Shown: piece by piece, positions 15,325 through 63,360 of the stretch
How the letters are laid out: each line of letters starts with the position of its first letter
Numbering within the stretch: the first letter of the stretch is position 1
NCBI GenBank assembly: GCA_964655855.1
Contig: CAZZPE010000002.1
Coordinates: 89,076 to 153,075, forward strand
DNA from: an uncultured Bifidobacteriaceae bacterium
Lineage (GTDB): Bacteria; Verrucomicrobiota; Verrucomicrobiia; Limisphaerales; UBA11358
Direction: 5' to 3'
DNA: 64,000 bases
Translations under genes and position numbers: made by a program
Notes under the pieces: generated by a model
The model's database searches: none
Told to the model about the DNA's origin: nothing
What the model saw: the letters and a program-made list of their open reading frames with translations, nothing else

Positions 15325-15359
15325 GGGAGTTTGGAGTTGGGAGTTGGAAGCTTGGAATG
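15325..15359. repeat. Heptanucleotide tandem repeat (gggagtt/tggagtt, about 5 units; family C)
   Basis: gggagtt tggagtt gggagtt ggaagct tggaatg, immediately 5-prime of the 14601-15314 gene start. Confidence 0.75.
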
Positions 15360-15376
15360 GCTGCGAAAGGTCTGGA

Positions 15377-15421
15377 GCGCGCGGACATGTCCGCGCCCGG
15401 AAAGCGGCGACATGTCGCCGC
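15377..15421. repeat. Two perfect 18-nt palindromes (family A hairpins)
   Basis: gcgcggacatgtccgcgc (15379-15396) and gcggcgacatgtcgccgc (15404-15421), separated by ccggaaa. Confidence 0.85.
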
Positions 15422-15449
15422 AGTCCATGCAAGCACCGGCTTACGCTGC

Positions 15450-15727
15450 AAATCGGTGGATTTCGCGGATTTTAAGGCAAATCCGCCGGTTTTCCGGGGA
15501 ACTCCGCGCATTGGAAGGCTCACTCCACTGAAACGGAACCGCACTCCACTGGTTTGGATTGGATCTCCGCTGTCCCGCTTTGTTATTCCGCTGTTTCGGA
15601 AAGGCGCTCCGCTGAAACGGATGTCTGCTCCTCCGCTGCGGATTGTCACTCCACCGGATTTGGCGGGCACTCCGCTGCCGCAGGTTGCAACTCCACCGCT
15701 CCGGGAATCCACTCCGCTGGTTTGAAA
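15450..15727. repeat. Degenerate 21-bp tandem array, about 12-13 units (array 1)
   Basis: Units such as ctcactccactgaaacggaac / cgcactccactggtttggatt / ggcgctccgctgaaacggatg / ggcactccgctgccgcaggtt. Conserved core aCTCCgCTG recurs every 21 nt. Confidence 0.75.
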
Positions 15728-28492: not shown

Positions 28493-29479
28493 TCAGTGGC
28501 CGTGCTCCTCATCGTTGTGTGTGCACATCGTGCCGACAAACGCCACGACCAGCATCGCAAACACAAATGCCTGCACCAGGCAGACGAACGTCTCGTAACA
28601 ATAGGTGAACATCGAAAGGGCCAGGCCGGCTAAAAAGGACGGGCTGTGAAACGTCATGTCCAGGATGGTTTCGCCGGCAAAAATGTTGCCATAAAGACGC
28701 ATGGCCAGCGCCACCGGCCGCGCAAAGCCGATGGACAGCAATTCCATCGCGCCAATGAAAACGAACAGGAGGAAAAACAGCGGATAGGCCCATTTGCTCG
28801 TGTCCATTTTTACGCCGAAGATGTGTTTGATCAGCCCCCAAAAACCATTGTAGCGCACCGCCCAGAAAAGGCTCATCGCCAGAAAAATTCCCGCCATCGC
28901 CACCGTCAGGTTCGCGTCGGTCGTCGGCGGACGGAAAAACGGCTTGTGAACTTCCTCAATGGCAAACGGAAGAAAGCTGCCCTTGGCAGGCGTCCCGACG
29001 CCGATGCTGCCGACGCCCGGAATCAAATCCACAAAATTCGACATGACAATGAATATGAAGAACGTCGTCGCAAACGGAAAAACCCAGCGCGCGACCCGCT
29101 TGTCCAGAATGTCGGCAATCAAGCCTTTCCACCCCTCGATGAGCGCCTCCATCACGTTTTGCCCTTTTGACGGGATTTCCCTGATGCTTTTCCATGTCGT
29201 CAGGCGAACGATGACAACAATGAGCGCCGCGACGATCCAAGTGCAGATCATCGAGTTGGTCACCGGCAAACCGAGGACGGTGAAAATCGCGGGAGGAGCG
29301 GCGGAAACCAGTTCCGCAGCCGGTTCAGCCGTTTGCGCCGTCGCGATGGCCGGGCTTGCGGCGGCTCCTGCCGATGGATTGCCGGCCACCGACGGTAGCG
29401 ACGACTGCGCATTCACGCTCACCGCGAATACCGCGGCAAGGAGCGCGCAGACAAAAATGATGGTGCTGAATCGCTTCAC
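28493..29479 (-). CDS. atpB: ATP synthase Fo subunit a, with about 90-aa N-terminal extension
   Basis: Conserved LAMRLYGNIFAGE arginine motif. N-terminal signal-like segment and Ala/Pro-rich linker. Confidence 0.85.
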   Translation of the reverse strand: MKRFSTIIFVCALLAAVFAVSVNAQSSLPSVAGNPSAGAAASPAIATAQTAEPAAELVSAAPPAIFTVLGLPVTNSMICTWIVAALIVVIVRLTTWKSIREIPSKGQNVMEALIEGWKGLIADILDKRVARWVFPFATTFFIFIVMSNFVDLIPGVGSIGVGTPAKGSFLPFAIEEVHKPFFRPPTTDANLTVAMAGIFLAMSLFWAVRYNGFWGLIKHIFGVKMDTSKWAYPLFFLLFVFIGAMELLSIGFARPVALAMRLYGNIFAGETILDMTFHSPSFLAGLALSMFTYCYETFVCLVQAFVFAMLVVAFVGTMCTHNDEEHGH

Positions 29480-38949: not shown

Positions 38950-39573
38950 GTAGCGCCGTAGGCGCGACATCTTTGTAGCCCCGGCACAGAAAAAGATTTC
39001 CCAGCTCCGTCAGGAGCGACATATTCGGGGCATGGCCAACACCTACACCCAGATTTACATCCATGTCGTGTTTGCCGTGGAAGGACGGCAAAACCTGATT
39101 TCGCCGGAGCATAACGACGAATTGCAAAAATTCATCACCGGCATCGTGTCCGGCCTGCGGCAGAAATTGATCGCCATCAACAATATGCCGGATCATCTGC
39201 ACCTGCTCGTCGGGCTGCGACCGGATTCGTCCCTCTCTGATTTGGTGCGCGACATCAAGACGGGTTCATCCAAATTCATCAAAGAAAAACGGTGGGTGGC
39301 GGGGAGATTCTCGTGGCAGGAAGGATTCGGGGCGTTTTCGTATTCCCGCTCGCAATTGGGAACCGTCATCCGCTACATTCAAAACCAGCAACGGCATCAC
39401 GCGAAGAAATCATTTCGCGAGGAATATGTTGAATTGTTGGAACGGTTCGGCGTGGTTTACAACGCAAAATTCATTTTCAAAACCGGCGATGAATGATTCC
39501 GGAATATGTCGCCCCTACGGGGCTTGGGATTCTGGGTTGGCGGTTTCTACAAAGATGTCGCTCCTAACGGAGC
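38950..39573 (+). mobile_element. REP-flanked Y1 transposase unit (RAYT-like)
   Basis: Nested inverted REPs flank the gene. Outer pair: 38950-38979 (gtagcgccgtaggcgcgacatctttgtagc) and 39546-39573. Inner pair: 39002-39030 (agctccgtcaggagcgacatattcgggg) and 39497-39524. Confidence 0.75.
39032..39496 (+). CDS. IS200/IS605-family Y1 (HUH) transposase, REP-associated tyrosine transposase type
   Basis: HUH motif (MPDHLHLLV) and C-terminal catalytic Tyr helix (VIRYIQNQQRHH). 154 aa. Confidence 0.85.
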   Translation: MANTYTQIYIHVVFAVEGRQNLISPEHNDELQKFITGIVSGLRQKLIAINNMPDHLHLLVGLRPDSSLSDLVRDIKTGSSKFIKEKRWVAGRFSWQEGFGAFSYSRSQLGTVIRYIQNQQRHHAKKSFREEYVELLERFGVVYNAKFIFKTGDE

Positions 39574-39707: not shown

Positions 39708-40472
39708 ATGACAAAGCGCTCCGATCTAAAACCGAAGAAAAAAGAAAGAGTGTGCGTGTTACTGGAACGAGCTGGAATTAAGGTTGTAAGAAACCAATAT
39801 TTTCTGTCTGAATGGGCTTATGTTGAATCAGGGAGGGTTGCTGTCCTAAATTTTTGGTTCGCGCAAATGAAGCAACGAGGTCAGGACATTGTTTTTAATA
39901 AGAATTTCCTTGAAGCCTACGACGCGAGAGGGAAGAGGAATCAAGCCAGAGTAAAACAAGCGATTAGAGAAAAACTTCCAATTCGCATTATTGTTCTGGA
40001 TGGAAAGATGGGCAGTCCCAAGGGAAGCATTGTTTCCAAAAGGCAATTGGATCCAGCCATTTGGCGTGTGACTGCTGTTGACCAAAAAACTGGTGATTAC
40101 ACTTTGACGCGAGTAGCAGAAATGGAGAATGCCATTGATGACCTGTCGGCTCCTCCAGAGGGAAATCAGTTTCCAGATAGGGCAAGCGTCGTTGTCCAAG
40201 CCATAAAACGTGATAATCGAGTAAGGGCACACGCGATTAAACGTGCGAGAGGAAAATGCGAATATTGCAATGTTCAGGGTTTTGCTACAACAAACGGTCG
40301 CTTCTATGTGGAAGCCCATCACATTATTGCGCTATGCGATGCGGGACGCGACACGGTTGACAATGTGATTGCGCTTTGTCCACAGCACCACCGGCAAGCA
40401 CATTACGGTAAAGATGCGGAATCTCTGGAGTCGGAATTCATCAAGATTTTAGAGAAGTTGAACAAGAAATAA
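39708..40472 (+). CDS. HNH endonuclease with an uncharacterised about 170-aa N-terminal domain
   Basis: C-terminal CEYC...EAHHIIALCDAGRDTVDNVIALCPQHHRQAH (HNH/McrA-like). AT-rich. gggaaagga Shine-Dalgarno. Confidence 0.75.
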   Translation: MTKRSDLKPKKKERVCVLLERAGIKVVRNQYFLSEWAYVESGRVAVLNFWFAQMKQRGQDIVFNKNFLEAYDARGKRNQARVKQAIREKLPIRIIVLDGKMGSPKGSIVSKRQLDPAIWRVTAVDQKTGDYTLTRVAEMENAIDDLSAPPEGNQFPDRASVVVQAIKRDNRVRAHAIKRARGKCEYCNVQGFATTNGRFYVEAHHIIALCDAGRDTVDNVIALCPQHHRQAHYGKDAESLESEFIKILEKLNKK

Positions 40473-40590
40473 TAGGTGTCCCGCCTTGCGCCCGCCCCTT
40501 TCCGTGGTGCTGCGCTTCCGCCTGCGTTTCACTTCCGCCTTCATCCGGTTTCGACGAGACGTTTTGGGGAGCACATGCCTCGCGCGTGTC

Positions 40591-40633
40591 GTTTTCGGCG
40601 TCGCGCCGAAAACCTCGTCCGGCAAACTTGCCG
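40591..40633. repeat. Two GC-rich hairpins adjoining array 2
   Basis: gttttcggcg-tcg-cgccgaaaac (10-bp stem) and cggcaa-ac-ttgccg. Confidence 0.7.
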
Positions 40634-40676
40634 CTGCATTTCAAACAAAACTGGCTTTTGTTCAGAATAACCGATT

Positions 40677-41000
40677 TTGGGGGATTCTTACATAAATCCA
40701 TGACGAAGGAACATTGATGTTCCATAGATTAACATCAATCCATGTCAGGTTAATGTTCATTCGTTGTAAAAGAATGTTCCTTTGCCACGGATTAATCTTC
40801 TTTCGCTTAAGAGGATATTCGTTCGTCACGGTTTAACATTCGGATGCGATAAATGAATGTTCTTCCATCGTAAAAGAACATTCTCCCGTGACGGATTGAT
40901 GTTCTCCTGTCATGGATTTACGTGATTTTTGGTTCGCGGATGATCCTCCAACCACGGCTTTTCCTGATTTTCTAAAACCGGGTCACGGGTTTCTCCCTTT
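40677..41000. repeat. Degenerate about 21-bp tandem array, AT-rich, about 14-16 units (array 2)
   Basis: Units such as cacggattaatcttctttcg / cacggtttaacattcggatg / catcgtaaaagaacattctcc / cgtgacggattgatgttctcc / tgtcatggatttacgtgattttt. Recurrent GGATT...TTCTCC core. Confidence 0.65.
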
Positions 41001-41131
41001 CCGTGGTGCTGCGCCGTGCCTTCGCCTTCGTCCGCGTGCGCCGCAGGCTTGTCAATTCCAACCATCGGACAGGCTGTGGAGGGATTTTGCTCCGGTAAAA
41101 ACCCTTGAGGGAAATTCGCAAATCTGCTTTT

Positions 41132-43213
41132 ATGCGCGCTTTGAATTCCATGAACAGTCGTTGGGCGGCCATCGTCACAGCAACCCTTCTTGCTTTTGCC
41201 AGCCTTGTCATCGCATGGCAGTTTCGGCATTACAATGATACTGGCGTGGAGAATTGGTTTTCGTCCCTGGGACACACCTATCTTCGAGGGAAACAATTGT
41301 CGGCGATTACCGACATAGTGGAGCGGGAAAGACAAATCACACCGGCGGCCGCAGGGGTCAGACAAATTGATTTAATGTATCCAAAGGATGCGCGCATTTT
41401 CATGATGGACATGATCGGCCCCACCAACTACGACAAGATTGGATATTATTTTTGGGCAACCTATTACCTCTTCCCGCGTGAAATCGGGACAAGTCTGGAT
41501 CACGTAACCCGGCAAACCAAGGACGGCTTTGTCGGCACAACATCCGACTCCATTCAGGAAATTCTTTCCAACGGATATGATGTCAGGATGATGGTGCTGG
41601 ACAAGAACACGAGCGGTTTTCAGCCACTTCGGAACATGCCCATTGGACAGCCGGCCAACCCGGACTGGTTTGGCTCGAAACACGACCTGGTCGTCGCGTT
41701 TTTGCTTCCATTGCTGACGGCGTTTGCGGGAATATGGTTGTTCCGTTTTTTCTTTTCCACATTGGACGGGCGGATGGCGTTTTTCGAACAACTGGCCTGC
41801 GGCCTGGGTTTGGGAATGATGGCTGTGGCGGCGCTTACATTGGGCATCAAACTTTGTGGTTTTCACGGACGCGGGCTGATTCTCGTTGTCACCGCCCTTG
41901 GCGCAACTGCCGAAATATGGCGCGATCGCAGAGTGCTTTTGACAAAGATAACCGACAGTTTCAGGGCGCTGTTTCGCAATCCCATTACGGCAGCCTGCGT
42001 GATAATCGGCCTGTTTGTGTTTGCGATCCTGTTCCATATCGCCGGTCTGCAGGGACTTACCGACCCCGACGCGATGAGGTGGATGCTCAAGGCGAAGATG
42101 ATTCATCTCTACACCGGGCATGAACTGGTGCAGTGGTTTTCCAACCCCGCGCTGGCACATGCGCACCTCGACTATCCGACGCTCGTGCCTTCGCTGCATT
42201 CAGCCACGTATGATTCCATCGGTCATGTGGATGAGTTCGTCACAAAGTTCTGGCCCACCTGGATGCTGCTGTTTCTTCTGATCGCCCTGGCTTCGGCGAT
42301 CCGCATCGGGAACGGCTGGTTTCATGCCGCGCCATTTGCGCTCCTGGGGTTTCTGCTGTTGCCGGCCACGCAGCAATATGTCCAGTGGGAAGGCAGCACC
42401 ATGCCGATGATTTTCTTTACGATCATGGGCTTCATGCAATGCGCCATCTATCTGGCCGGAAAAGACCGCGCCCGGCTTGGACTTGGGCTGACGCTATTGT
42501 TCGGGGCGGCCATGACAAAGTTCGAGGGCAGTATATTTCTGGCGCTGGTGGGAGGCTGGATTTTGCTGCTGCCGTCGGCCCGACCCTCGTTGAAACTGTC
42601 GCCACGCCTCTGGCTGGCGGTGGTGTTCTGTTTTCTGGCGGCCCTGCCTTTTGTCTGCCTGCGTTTTCAAATACCCACATTGAACTACGAATCGAGTTCG
42701 GTTGGCGACGTGCTGCACCACCCGGCCACGTTCTTTTCAACCCTTGCGGATTTGCCCCGCCTCTTGCTGATTGAGTTTGCGCGATTGTTTGTGAATCCCG
42801 ACTTTGCAAACTGGAATGGTGAAGGCGGTCAGCTTCATTGGATCGGCAAATGGGCCGGCCTTTCTTCGCTGTATAATCCTTCCACGCTTGGGGTGGCGTG
42901 GCTGTGCCTGTTGATGACGATCACACTTTGGTTTTCCGTTCCATCACGACGCCAGGTGATCGCATGGACACTCGCAATGTTTGTCGGCGCCACGTTTGCG
43001 TTATGCGGTGTTTTCACAACCTTTGTCAGCATCCACAGCTTGAGCGATGTGATTGGTTATACCAACGATGGAGCGGGTGGACGATATCTTCTCCCGGTGT
43101 TGCTGGCATGGTTTACGACAATGACCATGCTTTTTTCCGAGGCGGAAAGGGCTGCTCAGAAACCCGCCACCGCCACCGCCCGCATCGTGGGAAAAAAGCG
43201 CAAACGCCGGTAG
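41132..43213 (+). CDS. Large polytopic membrane protein, function unknown
   Basis: At least 12 hydrophobic helices over about 690 aa. No diagnostic motif. Start uncertain (TTG 41105 or ATG 41132). Confidence 0.5.
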   Translation: MRALNSMNSRWAAIVTATLLAFASLVIAWQFRHYNDTGVENWFSSLGHTYLRGKQLSAITDIVERERQITPAAAGVRQIDLMYPKDARIFMMDMIGPTNYDKIGYYFWATYYLFPREIGTSLDHVTRQTKDGFVGTTSDSIQEILSNGYDVRMMVLDKNTSGFQPLRNMPIGQPANPDWFGSKHDLVVAFLLPLLTAFAGIWLFRFFFSTLDGRMAFFEQLACGLGLGMMAVAALTLGIKLCGFHGRGLILVVTALGATAEIWRDRRVLLTKITDSFRALFRNPITAACVIIGLFVFAILFHIAGLQGLTDPDAMRWMLKAKMIHLYTGHELVQWFSNPALAHAHLDYPTLVPSLHSATYDSIGHVDEFVTKFWPTWMLLFLLIALASAIRIGNGWFHAAPFALLGFLLLPATQQYVQWEGSTMPMIFFTIMGFMQCAIYLAGKDRARLGLGLTLLFGAAMTKFEGSIFLALVGGWILLLPSARPSLKLSPRLWLAVVFCFLAALPFVCLRFQIPTLNYESSSVGDVLHHPATFFSTLADLPRLLLIEFARLFVNPDFANWNGEGGQLHWIGKWAGLSSLYNPSTLGVAWLCLLMTITLWFSVPSRRQVIAWTLAMFVGATFALCGVFTTFVSIHSLSDVIGYTNDGAGGRYLLPVLLAWFTTMTMLFSEAERAAQKPATATARIVGKKRKRR

Positions 43214-43455
43214 AATGTTTCATCTGCAATCCTGCGATGACGAGTTTTGGTCTGAAGCGGCCCGGTTTTCACCGATGGGCAGAGCTCGCACGCATCAAAA
43301 CATTCTGAACGGAAACGCTCAAACTGCCGATTCAACCGTCGCGGCGGGTGCTGCGCCGCGCCTTCGCCTCCAGTGTCGGTCCGACAACCGGTTTCAATTT
43401 TCATTCGTCATTGACAAGGCCGGATTCAGGTGGAAAATCGGAATCCTATTTGACT

Positions 43456-44064
43456 ATGAAAGCTGTTGCCATCAATGGAAGTCCGCGAAAGGGCGGAAAC
43501 ACTGAAATTCTTTTGAAACAGGTGCTGGCGCCGCTGGCCGCCGCCGGCTGGGAAACCGAGTTCGTCCAGATCGGCGGCGCGAACATCCGCGGCTGCCAGG
43601 CCTGTTATTCGTGCTTCAAAAAGAAAAACGTCCAGTGCAGCCAGAAGGACGATGCGTTCAACCCGTGCTTCAAGAAAATGGCCGCGGCGGACGCGATCAT
43701 CCTCGGCTCGCCAACCTATTTCACGGACGTGAGCGCGGAAATGAAGGCGCTGCTGGATCGCGCCGGGCTGGTGGCGCTGGCCAACGGCGGGTTGTTCCAG
43801 GGGAAAATCGGCGCGGCGGTGGTGGCGGTGCGGCGCGGCGGCGGCACGCACGCATTTGACTCGATGAACCACATGTTCCTCATGTCTGGCGCGATTGTGC
43901 CGGGGTCAACATATTGGAATCTCGGCTATGGCCGGGAAAAGGGCGAGGTGTCCAAGGACGACGAGGCGGCGCGCAACATGAAGGATCTGGGCCAGACCAT
44001 CGCCTGGCTGGGCGCGGCGCTCCAACACGCCGGGAGCCGCCCCGCGATGCCGTCCCGCGAATAA
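43456..44064 (+). CDS. Flavodoxin-like NADPH-dependent FMN reductase / iron-sulfur flavoprotein
   Basis: MKAVAINGSPRKGGNTE...GSPTYFTDVSAEMKALLDR, with a CxxCxxC-like cluster (CQACYSC). Confidence 0.75.
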   Translation: MKAVAINGSPRKGGNTEILLKQVLAPLAAAGWETEFVQIGGANIRGCQACYSCFKKKNVQCSQKDDAFNPCFKKMAAADAIILGSPTYFTDVSAEMKALLDRAGLVALANGGLFQGKIGAAVVAVRRGGGTHAFDSMNHMFLMSGAIVPGSTYWNLGYGREKGEVSKDDEAARNMKDLGQTIAWLGAALQHAGSRPAMPSRE

Positions 44065-63097: not shown

Positions 63098-63360
63098 GCG
63101 CGGGGGCTATTTTCAACTCCCCCCTCGCTTTTTGCAAAGTCCCCGGCGCTTTTTGGACAGGCGGCGGGAGAGCTGGCATCGGCGTGGGGGACTTTGGCAA
63201 AGGAAACGGGGGAGCTGGCACCGGCGGGGTCGCCTTTGGCACCGGCGACGGGGGCTTTCGGAAAGGCGCGGTCGCCGACGGCAGGGGCGAGGGGAAAGTT
63301 CGCGCCGGCGCGGGGGCTTTTTCAAAAGGCCGGGTCGCCTGCGCGGACGGCACGGGGGAG
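63098..63360. repeat. Degenerate about 21-bp tandem array, G-rich, about 12 units (array 3)
   Basis: Units such as gggggactttggcaaaggaaac / gggggagctggcaccggc / gggtcgcctttggcaccggcgac / gggggctttcggaaaggcgc / gggggctttttcaaaaggcc. Confidence 0.65.

Follow-up and report, generated by a model that had tools for sequence, protein, structure and literature searches.

The array between the HNH and membrane protein genes

The window, by which is meant the whole stretch of DNA that was analysed, is 64,000 nucleotides long and belongs to a source genome (G000) that is 87% complete. The locus considered here lies between an HNH endonuclease gene (39708..40472, + strand), the N-terminal 170 aa of whose product are without any match, and a gene for a 702-aa membrane protein (41105..43213, + strand), which likely starts at the ATG at 41132 or 41151. 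A gene for an IS200-like Y1 transposase (39032-39496) is located upstream of the HNH gene and the array. The interval between the HNH and membrane protein genes is AT-rich and holds an array of 21-bp units (GC content 0.38 against 0.59 for the genome), an A/T-tract-rich arm and, flanking these, two copies of a repeat element referred to as E. The HNH gene, which occupies the position where gene-linked relatives of the array carry a small gene, stops 213 bp short of the array, and the array ends ∼130-215 bp before the likely starts of the membrane protein gene.

The core of the array (40686..40936, no strand assigned) contains 11 units scored with a position weight matrix, starting at 40686, 40707, 40728, 40749, 40770, 40791, 40811, 40832, 40853, 40874 and 40895, and a weaker unit at 40916. 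All of the steps are of 21 bp except for a single 20-bp step, and the mean spacing of 20.9 bp is close to two turns of B-DNA. The phase is continued by 3-4 decayed units at 40937..41005 (no strand assigned), namely CGCGGATGATCCTCC.., CCACGGCTTTTCCTGATTTT.. and GTCACGGGTTTCTCC. The first-pass annotation counted ∼14-16 AT-rich units; of those identified here 11-12 are clear and a further 3-4 decayed, with a spacing of 21/20 bp. The unit consensus is ATTRAYRTTCnTCCGTsAyGG and each unit includes two quasi-palindromes, GAAyrTTC and CCGTsACGG, 10.5 bp apart. The unit matrix hits both strands at a constant 12-bp offset, indicating that the unit is roughly dyad-symmetric. The A/T-tract-rich arm (40634..40685, no strand assigned) lies between a copy of element E and the array and contains a small hairpin, CAAAAC-TGGC-TTTTG, and the motif ATTTTGGGGG. 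Arms of a similar kind adjoin related arrays.

The same-base match at lag 21 is 0.43-0.46, with z = 6.6-7.0 against shuffled sequences, and the signal persists at lag 42 (z = 4.7) and lag 63 (z = 3.7). When the period was checked with repeat finders, autocorrelation supported it but TRF did not, reporting just a 41-bp period of 2.1 copies at 40750-40836; the array is too degenerate for TRF though not for autocorrelation. Stop codons occur in all six frames across the array, which upholds the earlier argument, made from stop codons in one frame, against an origin in heptad-repeat coding sequence. Related arrays likewise gave no open frame across them, and a coding sequence was rejected since every frame is closed in at least one of the arrays. 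The locus also occurs on an independent metagenome contig with one difference in ∼790 aligned bases, so the array is not an assembly artefact.

Searches for other signals at the array were negative. No match to a sigma-70 or sigma-54 promoter was found next to it, no GG-N10-GC sigma-54 match with ≤3 mismatches within ±750 bp of it, and no terminator match for it; Rfam gave no match at the gathering score or at E ≤ 1. A sigma-54 enhancer was rejected given that there is no GG-N10-GC promoter near the array. No gene or remnant of either of the two small-gene families linked to related arrays (the FN3 and 137-aa families described below) was detected within ∼1.5 kb by tblastn and profile searches. 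The 702-aa gene was compared with its ten closest homologues and none of them has an array upstream, so a role at the membrane protein gene promoter is not conserved, and the regulatory region of that gene was rejected as an identity for the array on the same evidence. A BLAST search with the array against 40 relatives, plasmids and phages gave no match, and a scan of genome contigs for a 15-nt pattern returned only records with single matches in unrelated taxa, most likely by chance.

Repeat element E and the direct repeats

Exact 20-bp direct repeats, CCCTTTCCGTGGTGCTGCGC, occur at 40496 and 40995, 499 bp apart, as first described, and there is no further copy of this sequence anywhere else in the genome. 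The hairpins described with them are also present. The first, at 40591-40613, reads GTTTTCGGCG-TCG-CGCCGAAAAC and forms 10/10 pairs, and the second and smaller one, GGCAA-AC-TTGCC, is seen in the fold. The first-pass annotation had joined array, hairpins and repeats into one composite, and this had to be given up because the hairpin and the first repeat (DR1) lie in an element of ∼135 nt that recurs in another genome of the genus, G043. The copy of element E to the left of the array is full length with a 12-nt insert (40478..40633, + strand), is separate from the array and contains DR1 (40496-40515) and both hairpins. To the right is a partial 5' copy without the insert (40978..41045, + strand), which holds the second repeat, DR2 (40995-41014). 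The DR2 copy corresponds to the first ∼50 nt of the insert-less element, whereas the DR1 copy has the insert as found in G055. A third partial copy, GGTGCTGCGCCGCGCCTTCGCCT, is at 43347..43408 (+ strand; element part 43347-43369), upstream of an FMN reductase gene with its ATG at 43457. This is the related motif that had been pointed out near 43347, and it matches 41004-41026 at 22/23 positions. It is followed by a stretch, CCGGTTTCAATTTTCATTCGTCATTGAC, that by eye resembles one unscored array unit.

A query in which a single repeat was placed between the joined left and right flanks gave a core match of ∼55 nt spanning the junction. Of 162 other genomes of the genus, 17 have this core, with 1-3 copies in each. 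The core reads GCGCCCGCCCCTTTCCGTGGTGCTGCGCyGTGCCTTCGCCTCCGTCCCCG, and some copies extend to a full length of ∼125-135 nt with hairpins. G043 has two copies of ∼125 nt, 405 bp apart (L224 1492-1600 and 1898-2020), which share inner blocks with 40496-40633 of the window, including the hairpin sequence. In other genomes the element often occurs without any array. No structured-RNA support and no Rfam match were obtained for element E.

As DR1 and DR2 belong to different variants of the element, and as its core is present in 17/162 genomes, the direct repeats are not target-site duplications left by insertion of the block between them, and their use as a sign of insertion is withdrawn. A MITE or other insertion with target-site duplication was rejected for the same reason. 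Judged by the sequence comparisons, the repeats and hairpins are a separate element that happens to flank the array and are not the array termini.

Two other gene-less arrays likewise have a short GC-rich repeat on either side, in direct orientation. The repeats at C1:28005-28041 and 28674-28710 (L002 8005-8041 and 8674-8710) are 37 nt long, share 97% identity and lie 669 bp apart, with a 21-nt core that has only three copies in the genome. Those at L030 7694-7729 and 8421-8456 are 36 nt long with 94% identity, at a distance of 727 bp.

Relatives of the array and the genes they accompany

The array had been described as part of the second of three copies of a composite element in the window. 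The other two, copy 1 (15325-15727) and copy 3 (∼63100-63300), share the period only. The best score of the unit matrix was 4.3 in copy 1 and -7.9 in copy 3 against a background mean of 3.8, and comparison of the three arrays found no unit similarity to copies 1 and 3. In the genome the array has one true paralogue, at C1:28087-28388 on another contig and the opposite strand, which is ∼70% identical. At a threshold of 14 bits the genome-wide matrix scan yielded only two clusters, with 18 and 24 hits, the remainder being single hits plus two minor pairs. The two arrays align unit by unit with one 21-bp indel, and they have their 20-bp step at the same place in the series of units. Within the clear units the only gaps are the indel of a whole unit and another of a single base; gaps of 3 bp and more are confined to the decayed distal units. 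The flanks of the two arrays do not align.

Further relatives were sought in a sample of ∼150 other genomes of the genus with a covariance model that covered a double unit and used sequence only. Clustered hits were obtained at five loci in four of these ∼150 genomes, a census that is a lower bound given that only representative genomes were searched and that the model sees only similar units. The arrays of G043:C21 and G123:C170 are orthologous, with 80.6% identity and the same number of units. The model scores them at 24-28 bits, the range of the window's own units, and a landmark, TTCGC(C)TTAARAGGATATTC, is common to them and the window array. A second array in G123, at C206, has an A/T-tract arm in common with the C1 array and different genes around it; it is gene-less and still phased (lag-21 match 0.54). 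G072 has a short array of four units and G053:C1 an array with a variant unit. The 21/20-bp steps hold in the window array, its C1 paralogue and the G123 array. Across paralogues and orthologues the best-kept positions are in the A..TTC core of the unit (0.85-0.88), although the orthologous arrays are only slightly better kept than neighbouring third codon positions (80.6% against 75.8%). Unit number is unchanged at both G000 loci in four metagenome contigs from near-identical strains; a variable repeat of the VNTR/MIRU type was rejected on this constancy and on the equal number in G043 and G123.

The arrays of C1, G123:C206 and G072 all lie between convergent genes. No trace of an FN3- or 137-aa-family gene was detected by tblastn and profile searches beside the arrays of C1, G123:C206, G072 and G053:C1, and no neighbouring gene is conserved across the related arrays. 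Given that no array-linked gene stands beside the window array or its paralogue, both are orphans. Few arrays are as degenerate as these two, whose lag-21 match is 0.43-0.46 where most others reach 0.54-0.66, and they could therefore be decaying.

The G043 and G123:C170 arrays have a gene for a 137-aa protein ∼190-310 bp downstream. Searching with this protein in 80 other genomes of the genus and in G000 gave 11 full-length loci, ten of which have an array of their own ∼120-350 bp upstream. The lag-21 match of these arrays is 0.46-0.63 against 0.15-0.27 at control lags, and each locus has a unit sequence quite unlike that of any other. Two paralogues of the 137-aa protein in G094 that appear very similar by direct comparison have unrelated array units, which makes the adjacent small proteins poor candidates for the binder. 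No sigma-54 match was found upstream of genes of this family. The 137-aa protein has no match in Pfam or the PDB; its predicted structure is a confident all-helical bundle with a Lys/Ala-rich tail (pLDDT 89) for which no fold match was found in the PDB at E below 4, and the model thus gives no evidence of DNA binding. In G000 a 140-aa member is encoded at C5:90727-91149 (L068), for which Pfam and the PDB likewise gave no match and the predicted structure is again an all-helical bundle with a Lys/Ala-rich tail; its family has >100 protein clusters, almost all of them unnamed or hypothetical, and nearly every member examined has a 21-bp array upstream.

The second family with arrays is the FN3 family of G000, for which no kinship with the 137-aa family was detected by profile comparison. 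It consists of five genes. Four have a 21-bp array detected by TRF ∼120-470 bp upstream, and at the fifth, on C9, the lag-21 match is 0.49 against 0.23 at control lags. A sigma-54-like match, TGGCAT-N5-TGCT, lies between array and gene in 3/5. TRF periods with at least three copies in G000 show 21 bp (33 arrays) to be the second commonest after 7 bp (227 arrays), and several of the AT-rich 21-bp arrays are non-coding. One gene-less array, C32:19070-19379, is 92% identical to a gene-linked one, C56:14047-14322, both having 13-15 units of 21 bp. Downstream of the C56 array is a gene of the FN3 family that has a sigma-54-like promoter match, and C32 is without such a gene. Their homology ends exactly at the array ends, which shows that arrays can be copied alone.

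Arrays with a period of 42 bp at C41:2152-2272 and C44:16276-16471 lie 7-91 bp from the starts of small ORFs (..WQVLRLLA.. / ..WPIVQLLA..) that look ArsR-type by eye and form a different gene class.

Interpretation and comparison with known systems

The window array has at least ten head-to-tail, non-coding 21-bp units and is related to a gene-linked array, but it does not share the location of the gene-linked members of the class, ∼100-470 bp upstream of an FN3 or 137-aa small gene. We regard it, with a probability of about 0.5, as a gene-less copy of a lineage-specific class of phased 21-bp arrays and a multi-site array for protein binding on one face of the helix. That the phase is kept at ∼30% divergence, that the unit is dyad-symmetric and that relatives stand in front of genes together point to a function at the DNA level, the likeliest being a row of one-face sites for cooperative protein binding. 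Binding, cooperativity and any regulatory effect at the window array are inferred from sequence. The array would present ∼12-15 roughly dyad-symmetric sites, 20.9 bp apart and all on one helix face, on which a sequence-specific protein, probably a dimer, would bind side by side, and the bound sites may form a nucleoprotein filament or wrap of ∼300 bp. At the gene-linked relatives such a structure, ∼100-470 bp upstream, would presumably set the transcription of the small gene. The window copy may have lost its small gene, or may never have had one, and might now act on the promoter of the 702-aa gene or titrate the binding protein as a decoy would.

An orphan that is active in one of these ways has roughly even odds in our judgement, and a slowly decaying relic is rated considerably lower. 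A broader and tentative idea is that the arrays are self-contained cassettes copied with base-exact ends, as the pairs C32/C56 and window/C1 may illustrate, each nucleating a sequence-specific, chromatin-like filament, and that gene-less copies work by themselves, for example as insulators or as decoys buffering the amount of free binding protein. If true, this would add a new layer of gene control in the Verrucomicrobia, with selection on the 21-bp phase and free turnover of the unit sequence.

The array could instead have been left behind, or copied, without gene and promoter and be drifting without function. This we consider unlikely, although several observations fit it: no gene of the array-linked families, nor a detected remnant, lies alongside; unit similarity is low; the array is set among repeat elements and adjoins the Y1 transposase and HNH genes; and the homologues of the 702-aa gene have no arrays. 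However, neutral decay to a divergence of ∼30% should bring several small indels, and the clear units show only the one whole-unit and the one single-base gap. The gene-less arm and array of the C1 type also persist in G123 in another gene context with a lag-21 match of 0.54, and the gene-linked G043 array is just as degenerate as that of the window (0.45).

A site for a replication initiator or partition protein, derived from an integrated replicon or serving chromosomal segregation, is much less probable. In its favour, ∼14 two-turn units beside an A/T-tract arm resemble the iterons of R6K, P1 and RK2 as well as sopC and parC. The iteron-like spacing (units of the ∼22-bp class) and the A/T arm are present at the window array but DnaA boxes are absent from it, and no canonical cluster of such boxes is present; a single group of four, on C20, is inside apparent coding sequence. 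The Rep_3 initiator is absent from five array-bearing genomes, none of the arrays has a rep or par gene as a neighbour, and plasmid or phage records gave no match. The gene dnaA is on another contig in G000 and 53 kb away in G043, and the genome holds many arrays with different units, several of them before small chromosomal genes. A chromosomal oriC was rejected, there being no DnaA-box cluster and no dnaA adjacent to the array. GC skew is weak on C1, on C2 and on the 794-kb contig of G053, too weak to test an origin.

Little weight is given to a non-coding RNA with repeated modules, such as a CsrA sponge of the CsrB/RsmZ type. A CsrA homologue is encoded in G000 (C17:4336-4491), GGA occurs in most units, as in CAYGGAUU, the paralogous intergenic copies recall many small-RNA genes, and both strands of the array fold far better than shuffled sequences (z = -6.5 and -7.3). 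Equal folding of both strands is, however, already explained by the dyad symmetry of the DNA, and the constant 20.9-bp spacing suits the DNA helix and meets no need of an RNA. The GGA is lost in G123:C206 and only partly kept in G053, and the empty promoter, terminator and Rfam searches (E ≤ 1) count against a transcript. Finally, a mobile composite of array, hairpins and terminal direct repeats, of which the window would hold three copies and which would have duplicated its target on insertion here, is hardly credible even with exact repeats unique to the locus, two other bracketed gene-less arrays and an array copyable alone with exact ends (C32/C56). The repeats and hairpin belong to an element of 17 other genomes that is often without an array, DR1 and DR2 are different variants of it, the sequences of copies 1 and 3 show no relationship to that of the array, and the search for an empty site was negative.

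Arrays in which twelve or more sites of protein size follow one another at two-turn spacing are, to our knowledge, familiar from bacterial plasmid origins and centromeres and not as a recurrent feature before ordinary chromosomal genes. Here at least two unrelated small-gene families in the genome each have their own array. The orphan copies show that an array can persist without a gene, keep phase through ∼30% change and duplicate alone, facts that bear on whether the arrays are promoter accessories or independent functional DNA. They also offer clean bait sequences for finding the putative binding protein. The analysis in addition sets the array apart from the genus-wide repeat element earlier read as its terminal repeats and hairpins. 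A search of the literature on phased 21-bp arrays of this kind found nothing relevant.

The iterons of theta plasmids (R6K gamma origin, P1 incC/incA, RK2 oriV) are head-to-tail units of ∼17-22 bp at two-turn spacing. The window array is like them in its two-turn head-to-tail units and in the A/T-rich stretch alongside. It differs in having no initiator gene, Rep_3 being absent, and in its chromosomal setting; its units are dyad-symmetric where iterons are purely direct, and its genome holds many arrays of unrelated units. At parC with ParR (R1), sopC with SopB (F) and the heptad arrays of pSM19035 a small dimeric protein binds cooperatively and a continuous nucleoprotein structure is formed. 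The long rows of short repeats are similar but there are no parA/parB-type genes near the window array, and the period is 21 bp and not 7, 11 or 43 bp. Sigma-54 upstream activating sequences and tandem operators with a centre spacing of 21 bp (the ARG boxes of ArgR, LytTR-family sites) have 2-4 sites. The arrays resemble these in that the sites precede a promoter and share one face of the helix, and the FN3 family does so further through TGGCAT-N5-TGCT between array and gene in three of its five members. The difference is in the number of sites, 12-15, and in the lack of a sigma-54 match near the window array or the 137-aa genes.

The closest comparison is with the gene-linked 21-bp arrays of the FN3 and 137-aa families. 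The window array and its paralogue differ from these in having neither small gene nor promoter match by them, and the window copy in being flanked by copies of an unrelated repeat element. They are alike in the 21-bp period, in the ∼10-15 non-coding units that make up ∼300 bp and in a unit sequence that varies from array to array while the period stays fixed; in unit sequence the window array is closest to the arrays that precede the 137-aa gene.
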